Positions 3,701 through 46,690 of a stretch of DNA of 64,000 nucleotides are shown one piece after another. The stretch is taken from contig CATNEN010000010.1 of the NCBI GenBank assembly GCA_950097015.1, positions 2,666,001 to 2,730,000 of the forward strand, read 5' to 3'. Within the stretch, counting starts at the first letter, position 1. Each line of letters opens with the position of its first letter. The position numbers and the translations under genes were made by a program. The notes under the pieces are model-generated. The model searched no databases and was not told the origin of the DNA. It saw nothing but the letters and a program-made list of their open reading frames with translations. The stretch comes from Macrostomum hystrix (lineage: Eukaryota; Animalia; Platyhelminthes).

Positions 3701-6371
3701 TGCCATTTGAGGAATTATTGAGAGACAGGAGCCGCGGACGGACATTGGGATAGGGACGAGAACACGGACCGGCTGGAAATGAAAGGGTGTGAGAGAGGAA
3801 GCAACAGCATAGAATCGCTGAAATTTGGAGTCCGAAAGAAAGAGAGAAAAGCGAGAAATAGAGGGGAGAGGAGAGAAGATTTCAGGGGGAGAGGAGAGAA
3901 TATATCAGTGAGAGGAAAGAATGTTTCAGGGAGAAAGGACAGAAGCTTTCAGGGAGAGAGAAAAGACTTTAGGTAGAGGAGATTTTAGGGGAGATTTTAG
4001 GGGAAGAGGAGCGTAGAATACTTAGGGGAGAAAGGAGAGAAGAGGGGGGAGAAAGAAAGGAAGAGAACTAGAGAAGAGTAGAGTAGAGAGAAAAAGCGGC
4101 AGTGACCGAGTGACATTGAGGCATGGAACAAGCAGTATCAGTGATATTGTGAGGCCCGGGTGCGCAGGGCCGATTATTCTGTCGGGCCAGCCGTGAACTT
4201 TAAAGTGCGGTCAGCCGCAGACGCGCACACCAAAGCAGCCAATGCCTGGGACAGATACGGTTGGCTATCAGGCGGGAGCACGCGGCCAGGTCGTGGCTGC
4301 GCTTCAGCGGGTGGGTGTGTAAAGTATGCGTCCCCGAATCGCGTCAGCAAATGCAAACTGGAATAGTGCTTTATTGATATCGCCAAAGGCGGTGGGGCGG
4401 AGAGGGAAGAACTGGGTGGAAGCAAGCTTTGCGGTTAGCTTTGATACCGACTGTAATTAGGACACTCGGATATTCTATGCGAGAAGTCGAAGTCGAATGT
4501 GACAAATATTTTTTTAGTAAACGGCAGGAGCAACTAAGAATAGATGTGTAATGCAAAATGCTTCGTAATCTAAGAAGTGAGTAATTACTCACACTGCCTT
4601 GCGTCCACTGGCGTACATCCACAGGTCCATGAGACAGGCCGGCAGCTGATGATTGAACAGCCAGTTGGCCTGATACCACATCGTGTTGGTGGTGAACACA
4701 GCCTTAGGCAGACGAATTGCGCTCTGCATTGGATGGGCAACGAAATATTTCGGCGTCAGGGTCTCCACGTGGGCCCAGGTGAGACGATTGGCCGGTCCGA
4801 TCACGGCGTGGTACACCGGCTGCCTGTCAGTCGGCTTGAATACGCGCTGGTGCCATACGCTGACCAGCAGGACATTCGTGGCAATGTCCACTGGCACAAT
4901 GTCCGCTCGGCAACCGCGGTCACCGTGCATGATGCGCATCATTCCCTGCATGGATGAGGCAACGCAGTGGATTGCTAGTCTATCCCAGTGGATGAGGCGA
5001 CGCAGTGGATTGCTAGTCTATCCCAGTGGATGAGGCAACGCAGTGGATTGCTAGTCTATCCCAGTGGATGAGGCAACGCAGTGGATTGCTAGTCTATCCC
5101 AGTGGATGAGGCAACGCAGTGGATTGCTAGTCTATCCCAGTGAATTGCTAGTCCTGTAGCCTAGCCTATGCATATTATTTTTAGAACCAGGCCTGCAGTC
5201 CATCACTGCAGTGGTTCCAGAGCACTATAACAAAGGACGGTGCTCACCTTGCCGACTGCGGCAAACAGGCCGGTGGGCCCGTTAAAGTTGTCCACCCAGC
5301 CGGGGAAGGGGTCCTCCCAGCTGGCTCCAACAATCGAGGGCCGAACAATGATGATTGGCAGGTGCGGGAACTTATTGGTCAGGTAGAACTCAGCCAGCTG
5401 CTTAGTGAATGTGTACGTGTTCGGCTTCTGGCCAATCAGCTTAGGCGTTACCTGAAAAATTATTTTGTTTTAAGCTTCAAACAATAAGAATACTGTGTTC
5501 TCAGAGCACAATAAATACCTGCTTCTCAGATCCAAATTTAACCTGGATCTCATGAGCTAGCAACTGCTAAAAATAACAATCCAAGGTGCCCAGCCTCTCA
5601 CCTGCTCAAGCACACCTTCATCCATCCACTCGATGGCGTCGAGCAGCTTCTGCGGGTGCAAAGGTGGCGGGTAGACAACTTCGTCGACGATTTTGCGCTC
5701 GCAGTTGGCATAGGCGGTGGACACGTGCACCAGCGCCTCCAGCTTGCGCATGCCCTCGCACAGTTCGGCCACTTTGCGCGGCCCGTCCAGGTTCATCTGG
5801 AGGGCGATCTTTAAGTGCTCATCGAAGCGCACAGTAGCCGCGCTGTGGAACACGATGCTAACCCGGTCGCGAAGCTCTTCAACGGCTTCGGGCGAGAGGC
5901 CCAGGCCAGGCTCGAACATGTCACCCTGGATGGGCACGATGCGGTCGCGAAAGTCCGGCCGGTCGCGCCGCAGCCGGTCAAACAAAACGCTGCCAAGCAG
6001 CTCCTGAGTTTGAGGGTGAAGCCGGAATTCAATTTGGACAGACAATGTTTTGGGACTGGACAGGAAGGGTGGGCTTAGGTGAGTGTCTGGCTAGATTAGA
6101 CCGTTGATCCCTTATTGCGTGAGCCAATGTGGCAGGCACTCACCTCGAGCCGCTCCTCAACAGGCCGGCCCCGCTTGGGCCTCATGATAGCGTAGATGCG
6201 GCCCACCTGAGGACAGGCCCAGAGCAGCTTCTCGAGCAGTACTTTGCCTAGGAAGCCGGTGATGCCCGTGATCAAGACGTCCTTCCCGGCGTAGAATTCG
6301 CCGATAGACTGGAAGCCGACCCGACTGGCATCGACTTCTGACTCCGCCTGCCTTTCGCTTTGAGTCTGCAT
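746..6371 (-). CDS. FAR1: Fatty acyl-CoA reductase (FAR1/2-like, male-sterility/NAD_binding_4 + Sterile domain); 7 exons: 6371-6144, 6003-5602, 5451-5248, 4945-4593, 2422-2293, 2158-2031, 902-746 (533 aa)
   Basis: Motifs [86 protein letters not shown] and a hydrophobic C-terminus. All introns are GT..AG with matching phases (total 1602 nt). Confidence 0.93.
905..1190 (+). mobile_element. tRNA-derived SINE family A, copy 1 (5'-degraded), in the last FAR intron
   Basis: B-box-like GAGTTCGAATCC at ~928. The body (ccaacctccaaggcacag...cctgacgatgagacagtcagggc...gcagaattgcctc) matches 44566-44790 and the reverse complement of 58505-58705. Confidence 0.7.
1458..1869. mobile_element. Non-autonomous DNA transposon (MITE) flanked by TTAA
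   Basis: TIRs CAGTAGAACTACCAAG / CTTGGTAGTCCTACTG; TTAA on both sides (1454-1457, 1870-1873); subterminal GGGGGGAATTCCCCCC palindromes. A related inverted copy lies at 36258-36626. Confidence 0.8.
2798..3372. mobile_element. hAT-like MITE
   Basis: Termini TAGGGTTGTTCGGG / CCCGAACACCCCTA; many subterminal (A)ACCCG(A) motifs; 8-bp flanks ATCTATCC / ATCTATTC (7/8 TSD match). Confidence 0.7.
4948..5142. repeat. 38-bp minisatellite (~5 copies) abutting the FAR exon 4 splice acceptor
   Basis: Unit gtggatgaggcaacgcagtggattgctagtctatccca. Confidence 0.9.
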
Positions 6372-8170
6372 GCTGAAGACTGTAGCTGCCAACTGGCTGT
6401 GGGCGAGCAGAGCGAATAACAGACGATAAAACACAAACCAACTGTGCGGCGTGAGTCTCAACACTATTGCTATTTTATTTATAGTCATGCGCCTGAGCAC
6501 AAGCTCATGGCGTGAGCCGAATGCCTGACCCCGGCCTCTGACCCTGAATACCCACAGTGCCACCCGGCCCCCCTTTCCACATCGAATTGTTCTTCTGTAC
6601 ATTCGAAAACAACACTGAGATTGGTCAAAGTGCAAACAGACGTCAGATAAGGGACAGGGCACATCAGCATCGCTTCAAATATTTGAGTTATACTTGCTGA
6701 GCGACACTCCCAGTGCCACACACAGTCACCAGAAGGTCATTAAATGTTACCTTGAGCACTAAACCTTGTTTGAACATATGCAACTAACCACTGTGCAAAT
6801 AAATGCTGCTTAATGTACACAACAGTGTATGCCAAGATGCTAATTTGCTTAATGATTTCCAGTGATTAAGAACTGAGTAAAAACTTACAAAACTACAAAC
6901 TTAGTTCTATTCTTTTGTGTGCTGGGTTGTTATGTTCATTGATTTGGGGTAATTGCATGGTTCCAATGTTTCCTATTAATCAGGGAAAAGGCATGGTTCC
7001 AAATGATTGGGCTAAAAAAGGCATGGTTTTCATCCTCATGATTAGTGCAGGTAAAAACTTGCTTCCTAATGATTTGCTAGGCGAGAAAAAACTATTCAAT
7101 TGACATGTTAACACATGACTCCAAATTATTTGAGTATTAAAAAGTGTGGTTCCCTATAAGAGGAAAGGTAACAACATGACTACCTAATTGAAATAGTTAA
7201 ATATATATATTACTGGTGACTTTAAGATAGTTATCTAGATAGGTACATGGAAATATTTTAGCTCAAAAAAGAATAAAGCAGAAAAACAAGTTCTAAAAGA
7301 TAGATACAATAATAAATTGCTATAGCTAGCCAGAAAGAACAAAAAGACCCAGTTCTAGAAATAAAAGTAGCATAAAAAATTCATTTCAACCTGAAAAATA
7401 TAAATGACAAATACTTATATGTAGAAGCCTTAGCCAGAAAAAAAACAAACAAGCCTTGAAAAGGGTCTTTAGTCACTTAAAGCTAGCTAGTGGTATAGAG
7501 CTTGTTAAAGCCTAGCTATTAGTCCTATGATTACTGGTCAGTTTGGTCACATGGTAGTCTATTTAGAAAAAATCTGGCAACATGTCATTTCAGCCAACTG
7601 AGATTCAACTCTTTGTTTTCAAGCCAACTCAGCCATTGCCAGATTGGTCATAGCCAATTAGAATAATTTGCAAGTGATCATAGCAAATTATGGTGAATAA
7701 ATTTATTATTATAAGTTTCTTAAACTATACTTAAAGGCTTTAAAATTTATCACACAGTTGCATCTGTTTGATACAATACTAATTTTATTTAATAACAATT
7801 ATTGAATATTATTCTAGACTTTAGTAAATGTGTTCTATGTATTGAGGTTCTTAGTAGTATTTTGGCCCATTCTACTATAAATATAACTGTTTAAATTGCC
7901 ACAACACAACCTTCCTACAATTTGATTCTACTATAGTCATAGATAGAGCAAACACTAGTGGCAAAACTGATAACAGCAAAACAAGATTTAATTCTTATGT
8001 GAACAAAAATAACGTCTGCCAAAATTGCTATAGCTGAATCAGCTAGTATCAAGAACTATAATAGCAAAGCTTATCAACCTGCTAGTCTAGAAAAAGTTGC
8101 TAATACTAATTCTAGATATAGGCTAGTTAAGGGTGTCCTAAAATATTATTGTGTACTTCTTTCTACCCCA

Positions 8171-8626
8171 TGTGACGTTGTCTCTCTAATTTAATGTAAT
8201 TTTAATATGCTATTTCAAATTAAGTGCATTATTTTCGTTAGCTATATTTGTTAGGGATATTTCTTCGGTTTTCCATATATATTTATAATGGTTTTGTTTT
8301 AGTGTACTACATAGTCGTAGTTCGTATTCAAATGTGCTAACTAGGCCTTTCCAGGAAGGCTCCCAACCCTTCCCCCGGGCTTGTTCTACGACTGAGTGCT
8401 GGTTGTTATTTTGTCAGTGGCTAATCTGAACTGTAGCCGTAGCTGTATTTCAAGTGAATCCATTGAGTAGCTCTGTAACCCATCTAAGATATAGCCAGCA
8501 TTCGCCGTAAAGACGATTTCTTAATTCGAAGGCCCAATTTACTGCATGAGAGTGCTTTCCGCTACGAAGGTTTTGTAACGATCGATAATTTACCTTGCTA
8601 TTAAAATAAACCGAAACTTCGTCATA
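8171..8626 (+). repeat. 5' LTR
   Basis: Matches 16447-16902; AATAAA near the 3' end. Confidence 0.95.
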
Positions 8627-8632
8627 TAAATT

Positions 8633-8646
8633 TGGAGGACCCACCG
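8633..8646 (+). promoter_or_regulatory. Putative primer-binding site (TGGAGGACCCACCG), resembling tRNA-Thr-type PBS
   Basis: TGG start 6 nt downstream of the 5' LTR. TGGAGG is the complement of typical eukaryotic tRNA-Thr 3' ends (recalled, not verified against this species). Confidence 0.55.
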
Positions 8647-9692
8647 TCAATGACAATTCGAACCCGGTCATCGACCATCGTCATTCGTCAAAAAGCTAGC
8701 TCATAGGCCTAGGCCTACTCATCATTAATTAGATCTCAAGTCTACTAAAGTCCAACAGTGATTCAGCACTATCAGTTCACGGCACAGCCTACCTACTACA
8801 CAGACGATCGAGAAAGTAAACAACAACCAACTTTATCAGCTTAAGCGTATCGGCAGTGTGTCTTCGCAGAGTGAGTCAGACGCTAAGCCTAAAGGAGGGT
8901 CAGACAACCAGCCAACCTCTGTGCTCTGCGCCTGTGTCCAATCACGTGACCACTAAACACACCTGGTTAGGAGTATCAACTCTTAATTGCAAGCGCAACA
9001 ACCCCAAAGCTTTAGCCCGCCGAGCGCCACCCCTCTCGTCTGTTGAACTGCGCCTAGCCATTGCAATCGATTGCCTAAGGGTTCTCTCGGCCTGCGCCCC
9101 GCTTGATTTTTGTGGACTAGGCGAGCCAGGCTAACACTGCAAAGCATTTTCGCCAGGTCGTCACTTACAACATCAGCAATAGCAGTCAATTAGCCAAACG
9201 CCGGCAGCAGCGGCCCTACGCCAGCTGTTCACGACAACAGCTACTACGGCAGCCGGTGCCAGTCTGCAGTTGCAACAGCGGCCAACAACAATCGGGTAGC
9301 ATCAGAGCATCGCCTCGCGGGTTGAACGGGCCTGCGACTGAAGGGCACCTGCCATCTGCGAACAAGCCAAGCCAAGCTGAACCGAACCGATCCGAGCCGA
9401 GCGGTGTGCAGCAAGCCTGGTTGAGCTGGACCTTGCCGATTGCCGTGGCGAACTGAGCAGTGTGCCGAAGACAACGGCGGCCGAGATTCGGAACTGGTGG
9501 TTGCAGCTAAGGCTGAGTTCAATTATTTATTATTTTTATATTAGGATCTATTGTGGCAGTAACTTTAGACTTAGGACCACCATTAGTACTAGACTTGTTG
9601 CTCAATAATTTGTAAACTGCCACATTCTTTCTTGTGTAGGCCTAGCTCGTTCTTCGCTCCTCTTTTTCTAGTTGTGTGTCTGAGTTCTAGTC

Positions 9693-12600
9693 ATGTCAGG
9701 CGTAAATTCAGATACCGACCAAGTCGACCAGTCAGGGGCAGCATTGTCAGGCCAGGGACCAGAGGAGAGCATCGGCCATGGGCCTGGGACAGCAGGAGGT
9801 GCTGAGGTGGAGATGGAGGGAGGTGAGCAGCCGGAGCGCGAGACCTCCTTAGGTGACCTCGCCAGAACCCTAGCCCAAATCCGTGACAACACCAGCACCA
9901 GTTCTAGAATACCGAAATCGAGCCCTCGGCTCAGACCCCCAGTGGCCTACACACCCAAAACCAAATTTGATATCTGGTGGACGCAATTCCGCCTGTTTCT
10001 TGAAGCCAATGAGATCATGCCTGAGCATCGGACAGCAGTGTTGCTTTCATCCCTGTCACCCGAGTGCCAAGAATTCTTTTACAACTATCGTCTGCACGAG
10101 AAAAGCTTTGATGAAGCAGTGAAGAGTCTAAGAAGCCGGTATGGCGAGCCAACCCACGTAGATAAATACTATATAGAACTGACCTCAGCCCAACAGCTGT
10201 CATCGGAGAGTATCCAGGAGTATTTTGACCGCCTCATAGGCCTAGCAAATGCCGCGGACATGAGCCGCTCTGAGTACGAGCCCCTAGTAAGGACGCGGTT
10301 TTGCTATGGCTTGGCTGACAAAACTATTGCCGAAAAACTTATCAATATGCTGCATGAAGCACCCAGGGCTTCACTGGAGAGACTCCTAGCTAGGGCTCGA
10401 GACACAGATCAAACTAGGCAGCTGCTCAAACTGACTGAGCAACCCAAGGTTAGAAGTGTTGAAGCAGACGAGATCCGAGCCCTGAAGGCGAGAATAGCAG
10501 AACTGGAGAAGAAACAGTCAGGGCCACAACAAAGCACGCAGAAACCTACTAATAGCAACAGTGGTGGCCATAGGCACAACTTTCAATCTCAGAAGTCCCT
10601 ACAGGACTACTCTAGTCATGCCCGAATGAGCGGCGCCCTACCTAAATGCTTCAGGTGTAGTGAGACTGGCCACCTCATTGCCGAATGCCCCTATCCTAGA
10701 GAGCCAGGTACTGGTGCGCCACCCTCGAAGTTCAGGACCCCGCAACCCTTTAGGGAGCCGAAAAGTTTTAAGCCAAATGCGAGTTCGAGGCCACCCAGAG
10801 AGAAGGGAGTAGTGACTCATTGGAAAGACTCTTACGGGTTCATTCAGTCCTCTCAGATAGGCGACTCTGTTTTTGCGCACCTGTCTCAGTTGGTCCAGCC
10901 CCTGTTGGACCTGGCCTTAAGCCACCAGCTAGTGGGTACCAGCGTGACATTCAGCCGTGTCGCCGACGCTGGCAAGTCTAGAGACAAAGCTATTAGTGTG
11001 ACAGCTACGTCGACGGACCCTAAGTGTGCTGAAGTGTCTTCAGACCTACCCAGTTACAAGGCAGGATTCTATGTTCAGGTTGAGATTGGCGAGACCAAGA
11101 CTGTTGCCCTTCTAGATCCCGGTGCCAATGCCTCCCTGATTTGCCCGAAGATGCGAGACAAGCTCCTAGAAGCTGATCCAATCAATAATGTCTTCACCCC
11201 TGCGCGCACCCAGCGCACAGCTACTGGTTTCAATGGGGCTAGTTCGCAAATACTAGGCAAGCTCCAGTGCGAAGTGAGTTTAGGCAAATTAAAACAGCAG
11301 CACATATTCTTAGTGATTGAAGGCCAGTTATCCGAGATCCTGCTAGGGTTGGACTTCTGTGGTAATTTCCAAATCGTCATGGACATGGCCTGTGACCGTG
11401 TGACCTGCGCTGGAGAGTACGTCCCAATTTTTCGCGGCACCAATGCGATCTGTAGCGTGAATCGCGTTGTGGCCGCTTGCGATACAGTCCTGCCACCCCG
11501 CTCAGAAACGCTGATCCCAGCTAGGGCTATAGACGCTGAGAGCAGTTCCTATGGCGTTGTTAGTACCAGATTATTCGACCCCGACCCGTCTATCATAGTC
11601 GCCAATTCATTGGACCAGGTCAGCCCCACTAGTCACGTGTTAGTCAGAGTCCTAAACAGCGGCGAAGATGAGGTGAGGATTGCCAAGGGCGAGGAGGTAG
11701 CGTCTTTCAAGAAGCTAGGAGCTGATGAGAGCGTAGTGAGTACCAGACTTAGTGAGAGTGATTTCAGCATTGACAACGAGAGCGCGCTTAATGATAAGCT
11801 GTGCAAGCTGCCCTACCCAGATCCAGGGACAGCCAAGTGGCTCTTAGATCAATTTCACCTGCAGGAACGTAACCTGACCCAGGAGCAGCTGGATACGACA
11901 GTAAAAATGCTGAACTATTTTCTTAGCCAGATCTCGAAATCGGAAGCAGACATCGGTAGAACCCCTCTGCATGAACTGTCAATCGAGTTAAAGGACCCGA
12001 AGTGTCGCCCGATTTCTCAGCCATCGAGGCGAACAACCCCAGCGCAAAAGGAATTTCTGGATAAGTACATCGCCCAGCTCCTAAACCAGGGAGTTGTTGA
12101 AGAGTGCGACTCCGAGTGGGCCTCACCCATTGTGCTTGTGAAAAAGAAGGACGGTACATGGCGCCTTTGCGTAGATTACCGTGCGCTCAACAAGCACATA
12201 AAGCCGTGCTCTTTCCCGCTGCCCTTAATAGACGAATCTTTCGATAGCTTAGCGGGATCCGCCGTCTTTAGTAGTTTAGATCTGACGAGCGCCTACTGGC
12301 AGGTAGGGATCCGGGAAGCTGACCGAGACCTCACCGCGTTCTCATGTCCCCAGGGCACCTTTCGTTGGACCGTAGTCCCCTATGGGATCAAGACCGCGCC
12401 TGCAAGTTTCGCCAGGCTGATGCACCGCGTGTTTCGCCCTCTTTTGCTCAGGGTTAGCCTAATTTACCTAGACGATGTCATCATCAAGGCCAGAAACAAC
12501 GACGAGATGATTTCCCACCTGGCGCTAGTTTTCTGGCAGCTTAGAAAAGCGAATCTGAAAATCAGACCCTCGAAGTGTGAGCTCTTCAAGGACAAACTGA

Positions 12601-15600
12601 AGTTTCTGGGCTTCATAGTTTCCTCAAAAGGGATAGAGGCCGATCCGACCAAAACTGAGGCCGTTCAACAGTGGTGTACACCTAGGGATAAGAAGCAGCT
12701 TCTCTCCTTCCTGGGATTTGCCAATTACTACAGAAAGTTTGTCCCTAGGTTCTCCATCATAGCCACGCCTCTGTATGCCCTAGCCAAGTGCTCTGAGAAA
12801 TTTGTTTGGCGCCAAGTGCACGAGGCCGCTTTCCAAGAACTAAAGTCCAACCTATGTAACCCACCAGTGCTGAGATACCCGGACCTGAGTCCCACAGCGG
12901 GCACCTTTGTTCTAGACTGCGACAGCTCCCTTGACGGTGTGGGAGCAGTCCTTTCCCAACTAGATGGGAACGACGTAGAACAAGTGATTGCCTACGCTTC
13001 TAAAAAATTCACCAGCGCGCAGCGAAACTATTGCGCCACCTTGAGGGAGCTCCTAGGTCTGGTTCTTATGTTAGAGCAGTTCAGGACTTACTTACTTGAC
13101 CGGGAGTTCCTAGTGCGAACAGATGCGATTGCTCTGAAGTGGTTACACTCGAAAAAACACGCAACCGGAATGCTCGCCCAATGGTTGGTCACACTAGAGC
13201 CTTACACCTTCAAGGTAGACCAGACTCCACTGGAGAGAATAGCGGAGTACGATTTTAAAATCTCCCACAGAGCTGGGGAATCCCACGTTAATGCAGATGT
13301 TTTGAGTCGCAACCCGAAGTTCAGAGCAGACCATTTCGACTGCCCAACCTGTAGCCTGATCCCAGAATTTATATCCAAGTTCCAGAAGGGAAAAAAACCA
13401 GCGCCATCGGATGTTAGTGAGGTCAAAATCAGCCGTATGTGTGTCAGTACTCAGACTCTAGTCACAACTGGCTGTCAGACCACCGAGCTGATATTCGACT
13501 CAGCGATTCAGCTTCAAAATGAGCCGGTTACAGACTTAGCAGTTCAGACTGACCTCCAACGGGTCCCTGAGATCCCTGAGCCTAATCAAGCTAGCAAGCG
13601 CCCAGTCATCCCAACCTCGTCTGCAGGTACTCAGGTAGACACCAAACCTAAACCGGAAACACCGCCATCAGCCGCAGCACATGCTGTGCAAGTCCAGGTC
13701 TCGGATAGGTCCACGATCGCAGACGAAGTTCTAGACCCAGGCAGTGATAACGAAGATGAGGCGGGGGCTGAACAGAGAGAAAGAGAATGGGCCCGTAGTG
13801 CTCAGGATTCAAACATTGATCTTGTTTTCCTGAGAGATGCTGTAGCTGGAAAGGTAGAGAGGTTGTCTAAGCAGGAGCTCCAAGGTTGCAGTCGTGAGCT
13901 CAGAGCCTTATGGGCTATGTTTGACGAACTGTCTGTTGAGGACGATCTGCTGCTTCGGAACAAGCCAGCCAAGAAAAGGAAGCCCGCTGCCAAGCTTACG
14001 GTCATCCCTGAGTCTGCGAATGTAGATGAACTAGTAACCAACTACCACAGAGCCGTTAATCACTCGGGGATAAACAAGACTTTAGGAGTGGTAAAAAAGA
14101 ACTTTCAAATCTCGAACCTAGAAACTATAGTCAAGGGAGTCGTAGCCAGCTGTGAGATTTGCGCTAGGACTAAGAAATGCAAGCGAAAGAACAAAGCTCC
14201 GATGCAGCCAACCCTAGCCGGGTACCCGAACCAGGTCGTGCATGTAGACCATTGCGGACCGTTCCCTGAACAGGAAGGCTACCGGTATCTGCTTGTAATG
14301 ATTGACAGATTCACCGGATTTGTGGAAATTGTCCCTGTGAAAGACGTAACTGCCGAGACAACCGCGGCAGCAATCCTGACAGAGTGGATTGTTCGCTACG
14401 GTGCTATGGAGCAAATGGTCTCGGACAATGGCACGGCATTCATAAATAACATTGTTGCAGAGCTGACCCGCTTGCTAGAGATCGATACCGTTAGAATCAC
14501 TGCTCGCCGCCCCCAGGCCAACGGGAAGGTGGAACGCAACATCCAGACTATTAAGAGTCAAATTCGAGCAGTCTGTGCTGAGAGGCATGTGACTTGGCCC
14601 TTTGCCGCTAGGTGTGTAGGGATGAGCATCCGCTCCCTAGAATCCGAATCGACAGGCATGACACCTGCTAAGCTTTTTCTGGGCCGTGAATTTCAAATGC
14701 CCCTAGACCTGATGTACAACCCACCAAGGCAAGATTGCTATGACCCGGACAGTTACGCGCACCGACTCCACCGAACTCTTGTCGAAACCTCTGCCACCGC
14801 ACGGGCTGTTAGGAAGAAGGCACAGGCTAGGCAGAAGCGTTACTATGACAGATCGGTTTATAAGTCAAGCTACGAGGTTGGAGAGCTAGTGTGGGTTCTA
14901 AACCCCGACCACAAGGGCCTCGACCCAGCTGTTTGGTTTGGTCCGTACAAGGTTATTCAGAAGGTCTCTGAGAGAAACTATAGGCTGATTCCAGAGTTTT
15001 CGCGAGAGAATCCGTTCAGAGTACCGAATCCTAGTCACAACATCTATAACGTAGACCGGATGAAGAGGTGCATCCGCCAGCCAAACTATCAGGATGTGGT
15101 TGATAGATTTAGATTAGACACCGTAGCAAGGATGCCACGCTCATCTAAGCTAGGACAAGGAGATCTGGATTCCAGCTCCAGACAGCTGAGCTTTAGTTCT
15201 GACTGGACTTCCGAACCAGACTTGGTCACTGTCCCACCTGTGGGTCAGAAGAGCCGCTCTTTTCCGAGAAGCCAATCATCATCAATCACACAGCCAGTCG
15301 AACAGCCAATCACACAGCCAGTTCAACAGCCAATCACACAGCCAGTTCAACAGCCAATCACACAGCCAGTTCAACAGCCAATCAAAACACTGCCAGTGGA
15401 ACAGCCAAATGCTCAACCAGTCACTAAACCAGAGTTACCACCCGAGGTGCAACCTGAACAAGCACCACAAGCAGTAAACATTGTCAATAATGAACAGGTG
15501 CCAGACATCGGTGCTGAAGTTGAAGTCACAGCAGAGCCAAATCCAGATCCTCAGGCAACACCAATACCAAATATGCCACCAGAACCACAACCACAAATAG

Positions 15601-15752
15601 AACACGAGCACGAACATGAACACGAATACGATCAGACAGACCAGGCACAGAGACCAGCTTGCACTGTTACGAGATCCGGCCGGCAAGTAAGGCCGCCGGT
15701 CAGATTCCTTTCCACGCTGGTCAACCTGCTCAGGAGAGGTAACGAGAGCTAA
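9693..15752 (+). CDS. Gypsy Gag-Pol polyprotein (2019 aa): capsid, CCHC knuckle, cold-shock domain, aspartic protease, dUTPase-like remnant, RT, RNase H, long linker, integrase with GPY-like module, repetitive tail
   Basis: CFRCSETGHLIAEC; KGVVTHWKDSYGFIQ..VFAHLSQL; LLDPGA; WASPIVLVKKKDG..RLCVDYRALN; YLDD; LDCDSS..RELLG..RTD..NADVLSR; H..H..CEIC; HVD..SDNG..GKVER; WFGPYKV. Confidence 0.96.
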   Translation: MSGVNSDTDQVDQSGAALSGQGPEESIGHGPGTAGGAEVEMEGGEQPERETSLGDLARTLAQIRDNTSTSSRIPKSSPRLRPPVAYTPKTKFDIWWTQFRLFLEANEIMPEHRTAVLLSSLSPECQEFFYNYRLHEKSFDEAVKSLRSRYGEPTHVDKYYIELTSAQQLSSESIQEYFDRLIGLANAADMSRSEYEPLVRTRFCYGLADKTIAEKLINMLHEAPRASLERLLARARDTDQTRQLLKLTEQPKVRSVEADEIRALKARIAELEKKQSGPQQSTQKPTNSNSGGHRHNFQSQKSLQDYSSHARMSGALPKCFRCSETGHLIAECPYPREPGTGAPPSKFRTPQPFREPKSFKPNASSRPPREKGVVTHWKDSYGFIQSSQIGDSVFAHLSQLVQPLLDLALSHQLVGTSVTFSRVADAGKSRDKAISVTATSTDPKCAEVSSDLPSYKAGFYVQVEIGETKTVALLDPGANASLICPKMRDKLLEADPINNVFTPARTQRTATGFNGASSQILGKLQCEVSLGKLKQQHIFLVIEGQLSEILLGLDFCGNFQIVMDMACDRVTCAGEYVPIFRGTNAICSVNRVVAACDTVLPPRSETLIPARAIDAESSSYGVVSTRLFDPDPSIIVANSLDQVSPTSHVLVRVLNSGEDEVRIAKGEEVASFKKLGADESVVSTRLSESDFSIDNESALNDKLCKLPYPDPGTAKWLLDQFHLQERNLTQEQLDTTVKMLNYFLSQISKSEADIGRTPLHELSIELKDPKCRPISQPSRRTTPAQKEFLDKYIAQLLNQGVVEECDSEWASPIVLVKKKDGTWRLCVDYRALNKHIKPCSFPLPLIDESFDSLAGSAVFSSLDLTSAYWQVGIREADRDLTAFSCPQGTFRWTVVPYGIKTAPASFARLMHRVFRPLLLRVSLIYLDDVIIKARNNDEMISHLALVFWQLRKANLKIRPSKCELFKDKLKFLGFIVSSKGIEADPTKTEAVQQWCTPRDKKQLLSFLGFANYYRKFVPRFSIIATPLYALAKCSEKFVWRQVHEAAFQELKSNLCNPPVLRYPDLSPTAGTFVLDCDSSLDGVGAVLSQLDGNDVEQVIAYASKKFTSAQRNYCATLRELLGLVLMLEQFRTYLLDREFLVRTDAIALKWLHSKKHATGMLAQWLVTLEPYTFKVDQTPLERIAEYDFKISHRAGESHVNADVLSRNPKFRADHFDCPTCSLIPEFISKFQKGKKPAPSDVSEVKISRMCVSTQTLVTTGCQTTELIFDSAIQLQNEPVTDLAVQTDLQRVPEIPEPNQASKRPVIPTSSAGTQVDTKPKPETPPSAAAHAVQVQVSDRSTIADEVLDPGSDNEDEAGAEQREREWARSAQDSNIDLVFLRDAVAGKVERLSKQELQGCSRELRALWAMFDELSVEDDLLLRNKPAKKRKPAAKLTVIPESANVDELVTNYHRAVNHSGINKTLGVVKKNFQISNLETIVKGVVASCEICARTKKCKRKNKAPMQPTLAGYPNQVVHVDHCGPFPEQEGYRYLLVMIDRFTGFVEIVPVKDVTAETTAAAILTEWIVRYGAMEQMVSDNGTAFINNIVAELTRLLEIDTVRITARRPQANGKVERNIQTIKSQIRAVCAERHVTWPFAARCVGMSIRSLESESTGMTPAKLFLGREFQMPLDLMYNPPRQDCYDPDSYAHRLHRTLVETSATARAVRKKAQARQKRYYDRSVYKSSYEVGELVWVLNPDHKGLDPAVWFGPYKVIQKVSERNYRLIPEFSRENPFRVPNPSHNIYNVDRMKRCIRQPNYQDVVDRFRLDTVARMPRSSKLGQGDLDSSSRQLSFSSDWTSEPDLVTVPPVGQKSRSFPRSQSSSITQPVEQPITQPVQQPITQPVQQPITQPVQQPIKTLPVEQPNAQPVTKPELPPEVQPEQAPQAVNIVNNEQVPDIGAEVEVTAEPNPDPQATPIPNMPPEPQPQIEHEHEHEHEYDQTDQAQRPACTVTRSGRQVRPPVRFLSTLVNLLRRGNES

Positions 15753-16430
15753 GGTGTAGTCGTGTCGTATGCTGCCTGTGTTCTGTGTGCCTGTTAGCTT
15801 TTCTTTAATATAGCTTTCGCCAATCTCTTCATTTTGTCATTAGGTTAGTATCTCTGCGGTCGAGCCTTGAATCTTCGGATTAGGTTTTGGCCATAGAGTA
15901 GCCTTTGTCGTAGTCATTGTTTGTAGCCTGTAGTTAGGAGCTTAGCTTGGCTGCGGCCGCTGGTGCTGTAGTCGAGGCCGCCCAGGTTTTCGCTCCGCCG
16001 CCGATTCGCCGAAATTTTCGCCAGTCCTAGACAATTCTCGTGTTTGTCTATTTGTCAGTTTTGTTTAAAAAATAAAAAAAACATTGCATTTGCTAAAACA
16101 AAAATATTTTCAATTCCTTTTATTGCCTCTGCGGTTTGATGACGTTGTTCAATTTGCCAATACCTTGCTGAATTTTGCCTTTGGCTTTTGTTCGAATTTT
16201 TGCCATTCGTCGTTCAGTTTTGCCACTCGATATTCCGTTTTTGCCGTTCGTCTTTGAAGTTTAATGCCTGTTTTTGTGTCACTTGAAACTGCCATTGTTA
16301 ACCTTATTTTCAAAATATTTCTAGACAGCTATTCTAATAACTCTAATAACGTAGCAACAATTTTGAAATCGTTTTTTTCGCTAGCCATTTCGATGTTCGT
16401 AGCCACTACTGTTAGTAGGCCATTAAGCTT

Positions 16431-16446
16431 CTGAGAGGGAGGCGAG
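16431..16446 (+). promoter_or_regulatory. Polypurine tract
   Basis: CTGAGAGGGAGGCGAG immediately before the 3' LTR. Confidence 0.75.
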
Positions 16447-16902
16447 TGTGACGTTGTCTCTCTAATTTAATGTAATTTTAATATGCTATTTCAAATTAAG
16501 TGCATTATTTTCGTTAGCTATATTTGTTAGGGATATTTCTTCGGTTTTCCATATATATTTATAATGGTTTTGTTTTAGTGTACTACATAGTCGTAGTTCG
16601 TATTCAAATGTGCTAACTAGGCCTTTCCAGGAAGGCTCCCAACCCTTCCCCCGGGCTTGTTCTACGACTGAGTGCTGGTTGTTATTTTGTCAGTGGCTAA
16701 TCTGAACTGTAGCCGTAGCTGTATTTCAAGTGAATCCATTGAGTAGCTCTGTAACCCATCTAAGATATAGCCAGCATTCGCCGTAAAGACGATTTCTTAA
16801 TTCGAAGGCCCAATTTACTGCATGAGAGTGCTTTCCGCTACGAAGGTTTTGTAACGATCGATAATTTACCTTGCTATTAAAATAAACCGAAACTTCGTCA
16901 TA
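16447..16902 (+). repeat. 3' LTR
   Basis: Matches 8171-8626; followed by the TSD CCCA. Confidence 0.95.
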
Positions 16903-17025
16903 CCCATGTCTACACTATAGACCTCAACCCCCAACCACTTTCTCACCTGCATCCACACTGATTGGCTGCCAACCCTGTCCCTCTCTGTCTTTCTCTTGCT
17001 GTGTTTTGATGTTCAATTTCAAAAG
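16903..17025 (+). repeat. ~140-bp repeat (with 8152-8170) split by the Gypsy insertion; uninterrupted inverted copy at 27539-27678
   Basis: cccatgtctacactatagacctcaacccc...gttcaatttcaaaag is the reverse complement of ctttt gaaattgaac...gtctatagtgcagacatggggtagaaaaaagta. Confidence 0.85.
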
Positions 17026-17843
17026 GCTAGTATAGGCTAGTAAGATATAGGTTACAGGTTCTTAATAAACTTTTGATTTGTGATTTGTTGCTAAAAACAT
17101 AACATATTTTAAATAGTTATGGGATATCTATCACAGACAATTGCCACTAGGCTACAAACATAAATAACCAATAATATTATTTGGAAGAACCAGTGACCAC
17201 TAGGAAAAACTCATTTAATTTAAGGCTAGTCCTTATCATTGGCAAGAACATGTAGTGGATTACTAAAAAGGATATTAAAATTAAAATGAAGTTGGTGATA
17301 GGGGGGCCTATCTGTCAGAAATGCACTAGCCCTGATAAAAAGTACCATAGCTAATAAACTATTTAAGAACTAGACACACTTGATTTATTGAATAATGTGC
17401 TCAAGTTAAAGAATAATATATAGCAAGGACTACATAGATATAAAGGATCCTAGTAATTTTGTCAACTGCCATTAAAAATTGCTTGTAGCACTAGATTCTC
17501 AGCAATTCCTATAGCTGGTCACATTGTTACTTGCTAACTAGGCAACCCAAGGACAAAATCAAAAGGTTTGTTATTGTCAAGTTTGTTAGGCCTATCATAT
17601 TAAAATTAAGGCCCTTATGAATAAACAATACTTGAACTATTCTTTCATGTCTACTTTAGACATGTAAATCTACATTGAATAATTAAAAACTTACAATCAC
17701 CTTTTTTAATTGCTTAGACAAAATGACTTAGACTAGGGGCCTATTTTGGACACTTCATACGTCCTATTTTCCAGTACCAGTAACAGTACCAGTACCGGAA
17801 AAAATAAAAGTTAAAACAAATGGTCGTAACATCGAAAAATATT

Positions 17844-18496
17844 AATTGCCATGGCTGTAGATGAAGCACGTGCAATTTCAGCTTCCTACAGCATCCAGCG
17901 CCGGAGCAGTGGACCCTTAAAGTGCGTCTCCCCACCCCAGCCATAGAAGCCTCTGTTACTAAGGTCATGAGGACCCTTATTGCGCCAGCATGACTGGTCA
18001 GGGGCAACTAATAACCATCAGAGCATCAATTGCCATGGCTGTAGATGAAGCACGTGCAATTTCAGCTTCCTACAGCATCCAGCGCCGGAGCAGTGGACCC
18101 TTAAAGTGCGTCTCCCCACCCCAGCCATAGAAGCCTCTGTTACTAAGGTCATGAGGACCCTTATTGCGCCAGCATGACTGGTCAGGGGCAACTAATAACC
18201 ATCAGAGCATCAATTGCCATGGCTGTAGATGAAGCACGTGCAATTTCAGCTTCCTACAGCATCCAGCGCCGGAGCAGTGGACCCTTAAAGTGCGTCTCCC
18301 CACCCCAGCCATAGAAGCCTCTGTTACTAAGGTCATGAGGACCCTTATTGCGCCAGCATGACTGGTCAGGGGCAACTAATAACCATCAGAGCATCAATTG
18401 CCATGGCTGTAGATGAAGCACGTGCAATTTCAGCTTCCTACAGCATCCAGCGCCGGAGCAGTGGACCCTTAAAGTGCGTCTCCCCACCCCAGCCAT
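17844..18496 (+). repeat. 184-bp tandem array (~3.5 units) in the left TIR
   Basis: aattgccatggctgtagatg... recurs with G at 17848, 18032, 18216 and 18400. Confidence 0.95.
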
Positions 18497-19420
18497 GACG
18501 ACCCTTTAAAACGTGTGAAAGGTTCGTTGAAAATGCCGGGACAAAGATGTGACAGGGTTCTGAAGGTTTGTTACTGGTGCAGAAGGGTTTTGAAGTATTT
18601 TGTTGGCAGAGTTAATTATTGGATTCGTTTAGTGCAGTAAATTAGGCATATGTGCACCCTCCTTCTTTTTAAATCGGGCTTGGGACCGACTTTGGCGAAG
18701 TTACTCACAAAGTTTTTCATTCGTATTATGCTATGATCACAAAGCATAGCTGCTTTGAGTTTTAAACACAATTATTAAAAATAGTTTGCTAATTTTTAGT
18801 TGTGAACTGAAATGAAAACAAAATTTTAAAATAATATTTTTCATATTTCACCAAAATTTTTTTTGCTAAGTAGAATTTACATTATTGTAGTCGACTACGC
18901 TTATCATAAAAAGCTACCTTCTATGACTAGCATGGTAGTTTCTTTGTTGGAAACTACCTCTCTAATGCCTAATAATCTATTTTCATTCAACACATGCTTG
19001 GTCAGGGATCTGTTGGCTATGACTGGAGAATGTCAAAGCTGTTGGTGAGTTGAGTCCCATACAGACCAAATCGAAAATAATTGTTTTTTAGCGATGTAAG
19101 CAAAATGAGCAACTGTTACCACTGAAGCTATATGATGCACACATAAAAAATGGAATGAGAAACAGCGAATAAACGGCAAAATACAGGTACAACTGATGAG
19201 CCAACCTTCTTGGTGAGCAAGCATGCAAAATAAGAAAACACATTTGTGCATAAGAAATGGAATCTATATACTACTAAGTATAGTTTAGCATGGTACCACT
19301 CAATATGCAACGGTTTTAATCTGTGGCACTTCAGCTAAAAATTGATTAGGAAAAGCTATTGATACGAAAGCGAATGTGACTCGCGGTGCTGAGGCCTGAG
19401 CCAAAACGCCGAAGACTCGA

Positions 19421-22400
19421 TCAATTAGTGCAGCAAGACACAAAGGCACCAGATTGATGACGAATCAATAATTCGGATTCGGCGCATCGACTGTGAATCC
19501 AGGCATCACAGAGATCGCACTGGATCCAAAATGTCTCACTTCTGGTGCTGCCCTTGCATACTTTGCAAGTGTCTGATTCCATCGATAATTTCTGACAGTT
19601 GCTTTCAATCGTTTTCCAAATGTAATTTCGAGCAGCATTAAAAAACCTCTGGCTGGTCGGAATCATTAAGTTGCTAAATCCTGCTGCTGATCCTATAATT
19701 AACATCTTAGCAAACAGACAGACAAAAACACCGCAGTTGTATGAATCCTTTTGCATGGAGTGAAGAAACGAGCGCTTCTTGTACTGCCCATATGCGCTGG
19801 GCATTATATTTTGTATTTCTTGACTGCCTGCAAATTTTTGCCATGCTTCTAGGTACTGATTCGTTCGGCGAGATTCATTTTGCACCATGGGATCAAGAAG
19901 CGAAAATTCCTTGGTTTGCAGGTTGACGTAAACTAAAAAGTAGTGATAGTTCAGCAGAACTGGACACAGAATTTTAGTCGCAGTTGAGTCAGCGCAGTCC
20001 AAGAGGCTCTGAGCTGCTGCGGCGCTGTCGTCTCTTAGTAGCTGTTCGAAAAAGCTGCACTTTAGGAGTCGAATGTGACTTCTAGGATTGCTCTCACAAA
20101 GAATATTTACGAATGCATTGACTGATCCAAGCGAAACCCACGCATTTGGCTGTAGTGATTCTTTGTCGAAGTCTACGATTACGTCATTCGTAGTAGTCTT
20201 CCAAATAAAGCTCTCCTTTGGTTTGCCTCTTGATTCTGGTTCGTTCTGGGGCGGTTTTACATGTCGTGACTTTTTCTTGGTCGTCTCGGGCTTTAGAATC
20301 GGTGAGCTTGGTCGCTTATATTTAGTTCGCTGTCTTGTGGGCTTCCTGCCCCACTGCTCTTTCGCTTCTTGTGCGCTTTCTTCATTTCTTTGACTGGATA
20401 ATTTAGGGGCACGTTTGTCCGCAAGAATCGAGAAACCTTTCACGCGGCGTAGTACATACTGGAATTGCTGCTCAGTGAATGCACATATCTTAAGCCGAGA
20501 ACTTCTCGTGGCTTTATTTTTCTTCAATTCACGAAAGTACGACTCCACAAAAGCATTAGAATACCAGCTGTCGATCTTTTCAAAACTTTTTATCTCACAT
20601 ATAAACATCGCAAATAGAGGGGCCAGTGGAAGCCAGTGCTTGATTAGGTATTCAAGTAATTCAGGCGCGATTACATGCTCTGCAGGAGATCTAACTGATT
20701 TTAACAAATATGAAAAATGTTTCATAAATGGCGAGCAGTTTCGAATCGTTTTTCTATCGGCTTTCTTGCGTTCTTGGGTTATTTTTTTTTCATCTTCGCT
20801 GAGACTTTCGTCTTCAACATCAGATGGCGTGCGGTCAGATTCTGATTCTAAAACGTGCGACACAGATGTGTCCCATTGCTTAAGCCTTTCACGAAGCTTT
20901 TTTAGATTTTGGTCAGACGTGAATTCCTCAATAATCAGATTAATGGTGCTCTCAAAGCCCGCGAAGGTCTCCTGATGAATGAGGTATACAAACGCTGATA
21001 CAAGAATTTCCTTCATACTTTTATCTGTATTCTTTGCCTGTGGAATTTCACCTAGTCCGCGAATAAACGCTTTGATAACATGATTGGTGCAAACAAAAGG
21101 TATAGGATGGTCAACCAGTGTGTTGGTTTTTACGGCATTGTAAGCTTCATTTAAGTAGCTCTCCAACTCACTGCCAAAGGCATGGCACACTGAGTGCAGC
21201 AGTGCCCAGGAAAAATCTGTGACAATGATGCCCGGCAAACATTCCCTTCGCATCACAGAGTTTCGACCGATAAGCCTTGCGAGATCACAGCGGACACTAA
21301 ACAGAAAATTGCTTATTTTTGGAGTTGTTTGAATCGTAGAAACCATCTCTGCAATAGGAATGCTGCGAGTGTTTCCGCTTTTCGATGGTAGAAGCAGCGA
21401 GTAGATGAGGCATGGCTTTTTTACATGTTCGATGATTCGATGAACTCCACCTGTCGCATCTAAATGTAAAACGCACCCGGGCCGGTCAGCCAGTAAGTTT
21501 AACTGCTTTTCTGAGTACAACGTTATTAGAAACGGATCGAACTCAAAGCTTTGAATGAAGCCTTTTATGGATTTACTTTCAATGTCCGTATTTCGCATAA
21601 TTTTTTGCATAATATGAAGTTCTTTAATGACATTTTTGTGCACGCGTCCTTCTTCTTTGACTTCTAGCTTCGCGTTAATTCGCCGAATAGCTGGAAGAGA
21701 TTTGACGCGCGAAAAGTCATTCTCGTCTATCTCTTTTTCTGTCATTGACGCCAAAAGCTCGTCATACAGTTCAGCCGGACTTTTTTCTTTCAACAGCTCT
21801 TTAAATTTTTCTGCTTCAACAGCTGTAACTTTACTTAGAGTTGGAAAGTCGTGCCTTTTCTGTCCTTGTGTTGAAACTGATAGCGTAACATCTACATTTG
21901 CCGTTCTTGGCAATGCTTTTAATATAAATTCAAACTTTTTGTTGCACGTTGAATGCTGACATTGGGCAAGCTGTCTTATGAAGTATTTTTTAGCTCGCAT
22001 TGAAACAGAAGGATCATTGATGTAACGGTTTTTAAATTTTAGAATGCATCCTGATACTTCATGATCCTCAATGCTTGCTAATAGTTTCCTTAAAGTTGAC
22101 ATCCACCACATGGATGAATCCTTTGTAAACACGTAGGTTTTTGCTTTATGAAACCTAGCCCCGTCAAACCACTCTTTTCCGCTTATTGAAATGTTAAATT
22201 TTAATTGGTGATCAGAATCCTTCGAGATAGATTGATTGTCAGAAGTGGGATCGCTCACCTGAAAAGAGCCTTCATCTGATAAAGGCTGCTCCGCTGCCGC
22301 TGGAGTTGGCGCTCCATCCGTGCGCCCAGCTGCCGCTGGAGGTGGAGCTGCTGCCGCGCGCTGCTCCGCTGCCGCTGGAGTTGGCGCTCCATCCGTGCGC

Positions 22401-22699
22401 CCAGCTGCCGCTGGAGGTGGAGCTGCTGCCGCGCGCTGCTCCGCTGCCGCTGGAGTTGGCGCTCCATCCGTGCGCCCAGCTGCCGCTGGAGGTGGAGCTG
22501 CTGCCGCGCGCTGCTCCGCTGCCGCTGGAGTTGGCGCTCCATCCGTGCGCCCAGCTGCCGCTGGAGGTGGAGCTGCTGCCGCGCGCTGCTCCGCTGCCGC
22601 TGGAGTTGGCGCTCCATCCGTGCGCTCAGCTGCTGCTGGAGGTGAAGCTCCTGCCGCGCGCTGCTGCTCTGGAAGGAAAATTTTGGAAATAATTGGATC
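19421..22699 (-). CDS. MULE/NOF-like transposase fused to Ulp1 (peptidase C48) and a PHD-like finger; main exon (the ORF track start is TTG, so the true start is probably in an upstream exon)
   Basis: DDE-type motifs LHLDATGG, VTDFSWAL, CTNH, SNAFVESYF; Ulp1 triad NYHYFLV / LLDPM / QKDSYNCG; C-terminal CKVC..WIQCDLCDAWIHSRC..SCC; splice acceptor ttttgcactataag|GAT at 22700/22699. Confidence 0.88.
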   Translation of the reverse strand, partial: DPIISKIFLPEQQRAAGASPPAAAERTDGAPTPAAAEQRAAAAPPPAAAGRTDGAPTPAAAEQRAAAAPPPAAAGRTDGAPTPAAAEQRAAAAPPPAAAGRTDGAPTPAAAEQRAAAAPPPAAAGRTDGAPTPAAAEQPLSDEGSFQVSDPTSDNQSISKDSDHQLKFNISISGKEWFDGARFHKAKTYVFTKDSSMWWMSTLRKLLASIEDHEVSGCILKFKNRYINDPSVSMRAKKYFIRQLAQCQHSTCNKKFEFILKALPRTANVDVTLSVSTQGQKRHDFPTLSKVTAVEAEKFKELLKEKSPAELYDELLASMTEKEIDENDFSRVKSLPAIRRINAKLEVKEEGRVHKNVIKELHIMQKIMRNTDIESKSIKGFIQSFEFDPFLITLYSEKQLNLLADRPGCVLHLDATGGVHRIIEHVKKPCLIYSLLLPSKSGNTRSIPIAEMVSTIQTTPKISNFLFSVRCDLARLIGRNSVMRRECLPGIIVTDFSWALLHSVCHAFGSELESYLNEAYNAVKTNTLVDHPIPFVCTNHVIKAFIRGLGEIPQAKNTDKSMKEILVSAFVYLIHQETFAGFESTINLIIEEFTSDQNLKKLRERLKQWDTSVSHVLESESDRTPSDVEDESLSEDEKKITQERKKADRKTIRNCSPFMKHFSYLLKSVRSPAEHVIAPELLEYLIKHWLPLAPLFAMFICEIKSFEKIDSWYSNAFVESYFRELKKNKATRSSRLKICAFTEQQFQYVLRRVKGFSILADKRAPKLSSQRNEESAQEAKEQWGRKPTRQRTKYKRPSSPILKPETTKKKSRHVKPPQNEPESRGKPKESFIWKTTTNDVIVDFDKESLQPNAWVSLGSVNAFVNILCESNPRSHIRLLKCSFFEQLLRDDSAAAAQSLLDCADSTATKILCPVLLNYHYFLVYVNLQTKEFSLLDPMVQNESRRTNQYLEAWQKFAGSQEIQNIMPSAYGQYKKRSFLHSMQKDSYNCGVFVCLFAKMLIIGSAAGFSNLMIPTSQRFFNAARNYIWKTIESNCQKLSMESDTCKVCKGSTRSETFWIQCDLCDAWIHSRCAESELLIRHQSGAFVSCCTN
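22287..22670 (-). repeat. In-frame 75-bp (25-aa) coding repeat, ~5 copies
   Basis: RTDGAPTPAAAEQRAAAAPPPAAAG repeated; DNA period 75 (ccatccg ending at 22320 and 22395). Confidence 0.95.
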
Positions 22700-23278
22700 C
22701 TTATAGTGCAAAATAATAAAGTAGGCTTAGAGCCCCAAAATCATGTGATAATTAAAGCAGCAATGTATTCAGATAAATTTATGTTCTGATGAGCTGATAG
22801 CCAACTTGTAGTTTTCTCGTGGTGTTCACGTCAGTTTACTTTGTCTGACATTGGTGCCATTCTACAGTATACTTTTAAGTAGAAAGTGATCCCAACCCAT
22901 TACAGTTAAAGAGAAAATTTTAATGTCGATTGCCTGTTCGACTAATAGTAATAATAGTGATTACGATAACGTTCTACACCTGGCCCCTATGCGAGATTTG
23001 CAACCGACAGCACAGCTGCAGATTACGCGACGCATCTAATGACTGTTGTTCAGTCCAAAGATTTGTGGGTGGCAACCCTTCATACTCGTACTCATTTTAC
23101 AGCTGATTGTACTGAAGCAATAAGGAGTTAGTGACACATTCTATGGGATCGCAACAATCTTGAGTCATTCTTTTCATTTAGGCCACATGTGTTTTGACTC
23201 CCCTGGATGTGACCGTCATTCACAAGCAGTACATATGCATGCACGTACATGAAAGGCAATCAGCAAAGCCAAACTTAC

Positions 23279-23620
23279 CTCTAGCGTGACGCCGATAGTA
23301 TTCGTAGACAGTCTTGCGATTCAAAAGGGAGTTTTTGAAATCAAGTTTCAGAACGATCTGACCCCATATGGATTTAGGATCGTGGTAGGAAGAGGAGCAA
23401 AGCTCCGATTCTTCATATTCACCAAAAATAAGCGGTGATAGATGTACAGTGCTAAGTTTTCCTCGTTTAAAAGCAATGCAGGAGGTAAAGAGAAGCGATA
23501 CAACAAAAATTCGAAGCATGGCGTTCCAAGTGAGGTTCCTTATTGATAATATTTTATGACACTGCGCGGAGTATTGAGTTCCTTTATACGAGCGTATTTG
23601 CCCTGCTCGAAAACCCCCAC
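23279..23620 (-). CDS. Probable upstream exon of the MULE transposase (putative DNA-binding N-terminus); start uncertain
   Basis: Open frame ...DPKSIWGQIVLKLDFKNSLLNRKTVYEYYRRHAR ends at a perfect donor AG|GTAAGT (23279/23278). Its phase (1) does not match the main-exon acceptor (0), so an intermediate exon is implied. Confidence 0.5.
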
Positions 23621-23968
23621 TCCTCACCATAGCCAGTGAAATTGAAGGCCAACAATCATCCAATTAAAAGGGAGTAAATTACGAAGGTCAGGTACAGTAA
23701 GCTGTCAGAAAATTAAAACCATTTAAGACTTAACAATAGCATTAGGAAGGCACGCTCGTAATACACTGGGATAAGAATACAGCGCCAGTGGAGTTTAAAG
23801 AGACTAAACCTAACAATTAAAAGCAAATCCTGCACAACAATGGACGAGGAGTAAGCAACGTGGAGGCTTAAAAAAGGATGCATGTTCACTGTTCAATTAA
23901 GATATGCCGCCAAAGAAACTATAAAATTGGCTAATTCGCGCATATCTGAATTTGCCACAAGGCCATAC

Positions 23969-27538: not shown

Positions 27539-27678
27539 CTTTTGAAATTGAACATCAAAACACAGCAAGAGAAAGACAGAGAGGGACAGGGTTGGCAGCC
27601 AATCAGTGTGGATGCAGGTGAGAAGGTGGTTGGGGGGTTGAGGTCTATAGTGCAGACATGGGGTAGAAAAAAGTAGGA
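27539..27678 (-). repeat. Uninterrupted inverted copy of the repeat targeted by the Gypsy element
   Basis: Reverse complement reads ...ttctaccccatgtctgcactatagacc..., i.e. the empty site with a single CCCA. Confidence 0.85.
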
Positions 27679-31457: not shown

Positions 31458-31466
31458 TATAAAAGG
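31458..31466 (+). promoter_or_regulatory. Candidate TATA box for the PIAS-like gene
   Basis: TATAAAAGG ~40 bp upstream of the ATG. A splice acceptor TTTCAG|GACATG is an alternative reading of this region. Confidence 0.4.
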
Positions 31467-31499
31467 CCCAAGTCTTCCCCACCCGATTGGTTTCAGGAC

Positions 31500-46648: not shown

Positions 46649-46690
<42 letters not shown>

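Follow-up and report, generated by a model that had tools for sequence, protein, structure and literature searches.

A Ty3/Gypsy retrotransposon in a 64,000-nt stretch of Macrostomum hystrix DNA (in the following: the window) encodes a cold-shock domain (CSD) between its zinc knuckle and its protease, which raises the question of where this domain came from, how widely it occurs and what it does for the element. Only rarely has a folded domain become fixed within the Gag-Pol of LTR retrotransposons, and every such case has pointed to an interaction between host and element (chromodomain, G-patch, AlkB). In this study, we describe an intact Ty3/Gypsy element and the lineage to which it belongs, comprising four families or more. 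On balance, we favour with some reservation the combined reading that a single capture from a eukaryotic multi-CSD (UNR-like) protein probably gave rise to their constrained CSD, and that the domain probably acts within the nucleocapsid (NC) as its second RNA-binding module.

Structure, boundaries and age of the element

The element is located on the forward strand between two copies of the target site duplication (TSD) CCCA (8167..8170 and 16903..16906). Its 5′ and 3′ long terminal repeats (LTRs; 8171..8626 and 16447..16902) have a length of 456 nt each and are 100% identical. The LTR termini are TG...TA instead of the usual TG...CA, and the TSD comprises 4 bp. A putative primer binding site (PBS; 8633..8646) beginning with TGG is found 6 nt past the 5′ LTR; it may resemble the 3′ end of tRNA-Gln, and no tRNA gene to compare with it is present in the window. 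The leader of 1066 nt (8627..9692) is followed by a single gag-pol ORF of 2019 aa (P0001; 9693..15752), and a polypurine tract (PPT; 16433..16446) with purines at 13 of 14 positions precedes the 3′ LTR.

According to the ORF and Pfam, the polyprotein has the order capsid (CA), CCHC knuckle, CSD, protease (PR), reverse transcriptase (RT), RNase H (RH) and integrase (IN). The capsid-like Gag region (aa 76-275; 9918..10517) gave weak DUF1759/PNMA matches and shows 46% mean identity in four families, while the single CCHC zinc knuckle (aa 318-333; 10644..10691) matched PF00098 (E 9e-4). Protease was assigned to 11067..11417 (Pfam match aa 461-557) with the catalytic Asp at nt 11115, the reverse transcriptase core to aa 816-976 (12138..12620; PF00078, E 6.7e-36), RNase H to aa 1039-1171 (12807..13205; PF17917/PF17919), and the integrase H2C2 and core to aa 1443-1607 (14019..14513; PF17921, PF00665). 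Direct LTRs, TSD, PBS and PPT together with the pol order PR-RT-RH-IN in Pfam are those of a Ty3/Gypsy element. The first-pass annotation had called it young and intact, and the LTR identity over all 456 nt, the TSD and an ORF without stop or frameshift bear this out.

The boundaries of the element are confirmed, since its flanks, once joined, correspond to a host repeat of which another copy, free of any interruption, lies at ~27539-27675 (97% over 137 nt). The insertion site (~8154-8170/16903-17025) is one of two inverted copies of this 137-nt repeat, which are 97% identical. The 694 nt that separate the stop of the ORF from the 3′ LTR contain no ORF of at least 150 aa; therefore, no space is left for env, and none was found, which sets the element apart from errantiviruses and other env-bearing Gypsy. 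There were no Rfam matches in 7500-17500 and, using a strict pattern, no canonical heat-shock element in the LTR. A public contig of run X2 covers 9693-12600 with 8 differences, and because it spans this region an assembly chimera is excluded. The CSD is also covered by public contigs of run X10, the RNA nature of which is a guess; runs X12, X13 and X14 gave no contig matching the element, and no RNA data set was listed as containing it.

The active-site motif of the protease (11115-11123) reads D-P-G, not D-S/T-G, and is D-S-G in the three other families. Since no difference at this site is among those listed for runs X2 and X9, and since a loose end of a diverged sister piece in runs X1/X2 shares the motif, D-P-G seems to be characteristic of the family and not a lesion of this single copy. 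The region between PR and RT (11418-11762; 115 aa) is 53% conserved in four families without a Pfam match; its position is that of the dUTPase-like region of the planarian element Burro (PMC6431247).

Identification and predicted fold of the cold-shock domain

The CSD comprises aa 369-436 (10797..11000), is of the canonical type with YGF and F-x-H motifs, and is supported by Pfam, a PDB match and a structural model. The peptide reported in the first pass lies in frame in the ORF 9693-15752, and the claim of a CSD was upheld by PF00313, which matched aa 371-438 (nt 10803-11006) with 29.4 bits (E 7.6e-7) on the segment 10770-11030, above the gathering cut-off of 27 bits. On the whole polyprotein, the score was 22.1 bits (E 1.4e-4) and thus under this cut-off. 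The same held for the whole-protein scores in 3 of 4 families (P0001, P0002 and P0028; 20.6-22.1 bits), while the sister protein P0014 reached 28.7 bits. Only one CSD per polyprotein was detected by Pfam. Both (Y/F)GF and F-x-H are present in all four families, with A, C, V or F as the middle residue of the latter.

Two statements on the location of the domain need correction. It had been placed inside Gag: the CSD is indeed situated between CCHC knuckle and protease, but gag and pol share one ORF without a gag/pol boundary, so that "inside Gag" is an interpretation. It had also been placed directly after the knuckle, from which it is in fact separated by a proline-rich linker of 33-35 residues.

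The sole PDB sequence match at E<=0.01 was CSD1 of human UNR (1wfq; E 4.7e-4). For remote searches and fold prediction a profile of CSD plus PR from three families (profile A2) was used, and UNR/CSDE1 accounted for 7 of the 9 CSD-type entries among its PDB matches listed, in a ranking in which this profile favours multi-CSD host proteins. An AlphaFold2 model of CSD plus PR from three sequences had a mean pLDDT of 57 (CSD 65-76). The expected five-stranded barrel was predicted in it, with strands at 2-11, 14-19, 25-29, 50-57 and 64-71; strands 3 and 4 are separated by an additional helix (35-42). Among 48,161 solved chains, Drosophila UNR, as solved together with SXL in 4qqb, came out as the best structural match (Z 11.6; rmsd 1.7 over 68), followed by two UNR entries (Z 9.8 and 9.5), M. 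tuberculosis CspB (9.4) and Lin28A (9.1). By Foldseek, UNR, CspA and YB-1 were not separated (E 2.4-4.4e-4). Taken together, sequence matches and model indicate that the segment is a real canonical CSD.

Sister families and range of the lineage

Three further families carry the CSD at the same place, making four of four in total, and all three are annotated in Macrostomum lignano. Region searches yielded P0002 (1 of 2964 candidates) and P0012-P0015 (5 of 102 candidates, P0002 included); P0028 was added by a profile search. The sister families have 10, 13 and 7 cluster members. The closest proteins are M. lignano gene models with 56% identity overall and ~80% in the RT. Both RNP motifs were found in 25 of 33 annotated M. 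lignano proteins; the rest are one partial gene model with a CSD match and seven proteins that begin downstream of the CSD, so a clean CSD loss was not seen among the 33. P0012 and P0015 are chimeric gene models.

The CSDs of the four families form one group (support 99/87). That CSD carriers might form an RT clade had been suggested as a check, and the four RTs do group together (100/100), in a comparison with only three distant outgroups (34-36% identity) in which no close sister lineage lacking the CSD was found. Contigs of runs X1/X2 with ~83% identity at 9936-10010 and 11124-11176 differ from the three annotated families in the few codons seen, and point to a possible further sister family.

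Beyond M. lignano, profile A2 was searched against 1.84 billion representatives, giving 637 matches at E<=0.001. The best 150 of these 637 comprised 2 proteins with CSD plus protease, both from M. lignano, 122 with CSD only, 25 with protease only and 1 unclassified; hence, no CSD-protease protein from elsewhere was among them. None of 3572 candidates was a shorter relative with the order knuckle-CSD-PR. Of 219 metagenome stretches scanned, 2 passed, and each of these is a locus with a CSD alone and without a match to the rest of the polyprotein. The element was found in 0 of 33 viral contigs, a BFVD fold search gave 0 matches at E<=0.001, and no CSD-protease cluster was among the ESM Atlas matches listed, the best scores of 0.78 and 0.82 being leads only. 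So far, the CSD-bearing Gypsy lineage is seen only in Macrostomum-type sequences. In an unnamed protein, P0154, which is another Gypsy-like polyprotein, protease and RT are separated by a NUDIX domain.

Conservation of the CSD and age of the capture

Across the four families, the mean pairwise identity was 0.49 for the CSD, 0.46 for the capsid, 0.55 for the knuckle, 0.54 for the protease and 0.82 for the RT, whereas the two linkers that flank the CSD reached 0.12 and 0.16. Of 68 CSD positions, 23 are invariant, including W377, G382, F383, F394 and H396; the surface aromatics and His are invariant or nearly so, and conservation is thus not confined to core residues.

In the CSD of a ~97% identical variant from run X9, all 5 changes listed were synonymous and none was a replacement (chance 0.006, transitions only), although the count is small. 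Among the changes listed elsewhere, the synonymous/replacement numbers were 7/1 in PR, 9/2 in RT and 6/2 in CA, while the N-terminus had 1 synonymous and 7 replacement changes and the linker before the knuckle 3 and 5. The segment could have turned out to be unconstrained in sister copies; with 49% identity against 12% and 16% in the linkers, and with the 5/0 ratio of the variant, it did not. Because of this cross-family identity relative to the linkers and the synonymous-only changes, the CSD, as judged from sequence comparison, is old and under purifying selection, while the insertion itself is young. A recent one-off capture was rejected, as the capture predates four families in which Gag and PR are ~50% identical. 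GC3 is 0.61 in the CSD and 0.62 in the RT, without a compositional trace of recent capture.

Possible donor of the CSD

The earlier description of the CSD pattern as UNR-like agrees with the spacing, which is that of UNR CSD1, and with UNR as best structural match. All four element CSDs have 8 residues from the first Gly to (Y/F)GF, as in UNR CSD1. This spacing is not unique to UNR, since 59 of 120 host copies classed share it. In a free tree (91 rows, 76 columns), the element CSDs were placed in a polytomy outside the UNR-like group. When they were forced together with a 32-row UNR-like group, which was picked after seeing the tree, lnL was 8.0 higher (p-AU 0.659). The best single-domain sequence matches include unnamed and protist proteins. 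A UNR-like origin is allowed by these sequence comparisons, and a capture from a host RNA-binding protein is likely.

UNR/CSDE1 (1wfq, 4qqb) is the top match in both PDB sequence and structure and shares the 8-residue spacing before YGF; unlike the element with its single CSD, it is a multi-CSD array, and the element CSD has the extra helix between strands 3 and 4 and only 29-33% identity. The first-pass annotation had also drawn a parallel to the module of Lin28 and plant cold-shock proteins. This module consists of a CSD followed by at least two CCHC knuckles. The parallel was retained in so far as CSD and CCHC occur in one chain, as in Lin28, but the order is reversed in the element, a single knuckle of retroviral type lies within Gag-Pol, and Lin28A (Z 9.1) ranks below UNR. 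A Lin28 module was rejected, as there is only one knuckle and it is placed before the CSD.

Proposed role in the nucleocapsid

It is likely that the CSD helps to bind and unwind the element's own RNA. As gag and pol form one ORF, one CSD per polyprotein would enter the particle. NC and CSD would stay joined after processing, because the proline-rich linker between knuckle and CSD has no evident conserved cleavage-like motif; a [VI]R-x-[VAIL] motif after the capsid is common to the four families and is not evident in this linker, and the cleavage sites themselves are a guess. Alternatively, processing could set the CSD free on its own or leave it attached to PR.

In the proposed mechanism, the basic linker and the knuckle would be responsible for aggregation and annealing of nucleic acids. 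Binding to single-stranded bases and the melting of local structure would fall to the aromatic surface of the CSD (W377, Y/F381, F383, F394, H396). The CSD might thus act in genome selection, tRNA priming and strand transfer, and would do the job of the second zinc finger of HIV-1 NC. According to PMC3258130, the single-finger NC of Ty3 aggregates nucleic acids without duplex destabilisation, for which the second finger was proposed in HIV-1. Outward-facing FGF and (F/Y)FH residues define canonical CSDs, a lone CSD binding RNA weakly and tandem CSDs more strongly (PMC7383231), and CspA uses aromatic and basic residues to melt hairpins in RNA (PMC5397153). The knuckle is devoid of F, W and Y in 2 of 4 families, while the CSD aromatics are kept in 4 of 4; the loss of knuckle aromatics would fit a hand-over to the CSD. 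In structure prediction, the PBS region was no more paired than the sequence around it (unpaired 0.51 vs 0.51), which counts against the proposed role. Since most one-knuckle Gypsy elements replicate without a CSD, the domain is not needed in general. As a tentative extension that we would not expect to hold in full, a Gypsy NC may have been rebuilt around a captured CSD that performs the base stacking and duplex melting of the second HIV-1 finger, and CSD capture may be a recurring, unnoticed route to an RNA chaperone for unrelated retroelements.

Apart from this role in the NC, the CSD may mainly control translation or stability of the element mRNA, and not reverse transcription, by acting as a UNR-like IRES trans-acting factor, by poly(A) binding or as a switch from translation to packaging. 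We regard this as unlikely, even though the best matches are of the UNR type, the leader is as long as 1066 nt, and host Unr is a binding partner of HIV-1 Gag/NCp7 that also stimulates the viral IRES (PMC9413769). The leader contains 1 ATG vs 11.1 expected, making it the most depleted triplet, compared with 14 CAT vs 15.6 expected, and this depletion fits scanning rather than an IRES and weakens a translational role. With such a scanned-leader pattern, an IRES was rejected as the main reason for the long leader. Moreover, a single CSD binds weakly (PMC7383231), and the position adjoining the NC suits roles in the particle. The sole upstream ATG opens an 18-codon uORF at 8650, just past the PBS.

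Less probable still is a module for counter-defence or host interaction, which would shield the RNA from PIWI/small RNAs or decay, or compete with UNR for partners or granules. It would be in line with the RNA- or DNA-related functions of many fixed extra domains of LTR elements (PMC9289625) and with UNR CSD1 working with protein partners, as the title of 4qqb indicates; however, the CSD is under strong purifying selection and shows no sign of fast change. We give little credence to a tolerated passenger or a spacer for polyprotein folding without an RNA-binding role: the whole-protein Pfam score is under the cut-off in 3 of 4 families, but the surface aromatics and His are near-invariant in four families and 5 of 5 variant changes listed are synonymous. 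An assembly chimera, a one-off insertion or a domesticated host gene is hardly conceivable: chimeric gene models do occur among the annotated relatives (P0012, P0015), but the spanning run X2 contig, identical LTRs, TSD and many copies per family oppose it, and an assembly chimera was rejected by this contig, the LTRs and the conservation across families.

Comparison with known elements and novelty

The M. lignano Ty3/Gypsy elements have LTRs, TSD, PBS, PPT and the gag-PR-RT-RH-IN order in common with the element studied here. In the part of PMC12801592 that was accessible, they are assigned to the clusters Mag, CsRN1, Gmr1/Osvaldo and Mdg3/Micropia and described without mention of a CSD, whereas the present element has one between knuckle and protease; "cold shock" and "CSD" are absent from the main text and 5 supplements covered. 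LTR elements with captured domains (chromoviruses, G-patch, KOW, and AlkB in orchid Gypsy; PMC9289625) likewise possess a fixed extra domain of likely host origin that often binds nucleic acids, and in Burro, too, additional in-frame domains are placed between gag and pol (PMC6431247). In term searches of the accessible text of PMC9289625, PMC3248453 and PMC6431247, "cold shock" did not occur.

Full-text literature searches yielded no account of an LTR retrotransposon with a CSD; Repbase, GyDB, Biryukov et al. 2020 and most subscription journals were outside their scope and may mention it. The first-pass statement that no Gypsy clade with this domain is known thus stands for the literature searched. 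Automatic annotation already tags the domain, with PF00313 on P0013 and P0014 and the UniRef name "CSD domain-containing protein" on P0015. The CSD is a real, constrained and apparently undescribed domain gain in a Gypsy lineage.

The HIV-1 NC and host Unr (PMC9413769) combine a retroelement NC with a CSD protein in trans, while here the CSD is provided in cis; the cis-encoded CSD mirrors the use of host Unr by HIV-1 Gag. Its fusion beside the knuckle offers a natural experiment on what is missing from a nucleocapsid with one finger. It can be studied as a small recombinant protein, and the lineage is accessible because it is multi-copy, has intact young insertions and has relatives in a tractable laboratory flatworm.

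Other features of the window

A DNA-transposon-like element, presumably Mutator-like, is located at 17756-24892. Its inverted repeats of 698 nt are 99% identical and contain 184-nt internal repeats, and it carries a minus-strand ORF of 1101 aa (19421-22726) with Ulp1 protease and PHD domains. An uninterrupted ORF of 875 codons at 31437-34064 has PINIT and zf-MIZ domains, as in a PIAS-like SUMO ligase. Host gene pieces encode a fatty acyl-CoA reductase-like NAD_binding_4 domain (5557-6674, minus strand) and a Shroom ASD2 domain (46324-48024, plus strand). Presenilin is encoded at 58764-60961 on the minus strand, its two parts being separated by a 27-nt tandem array.
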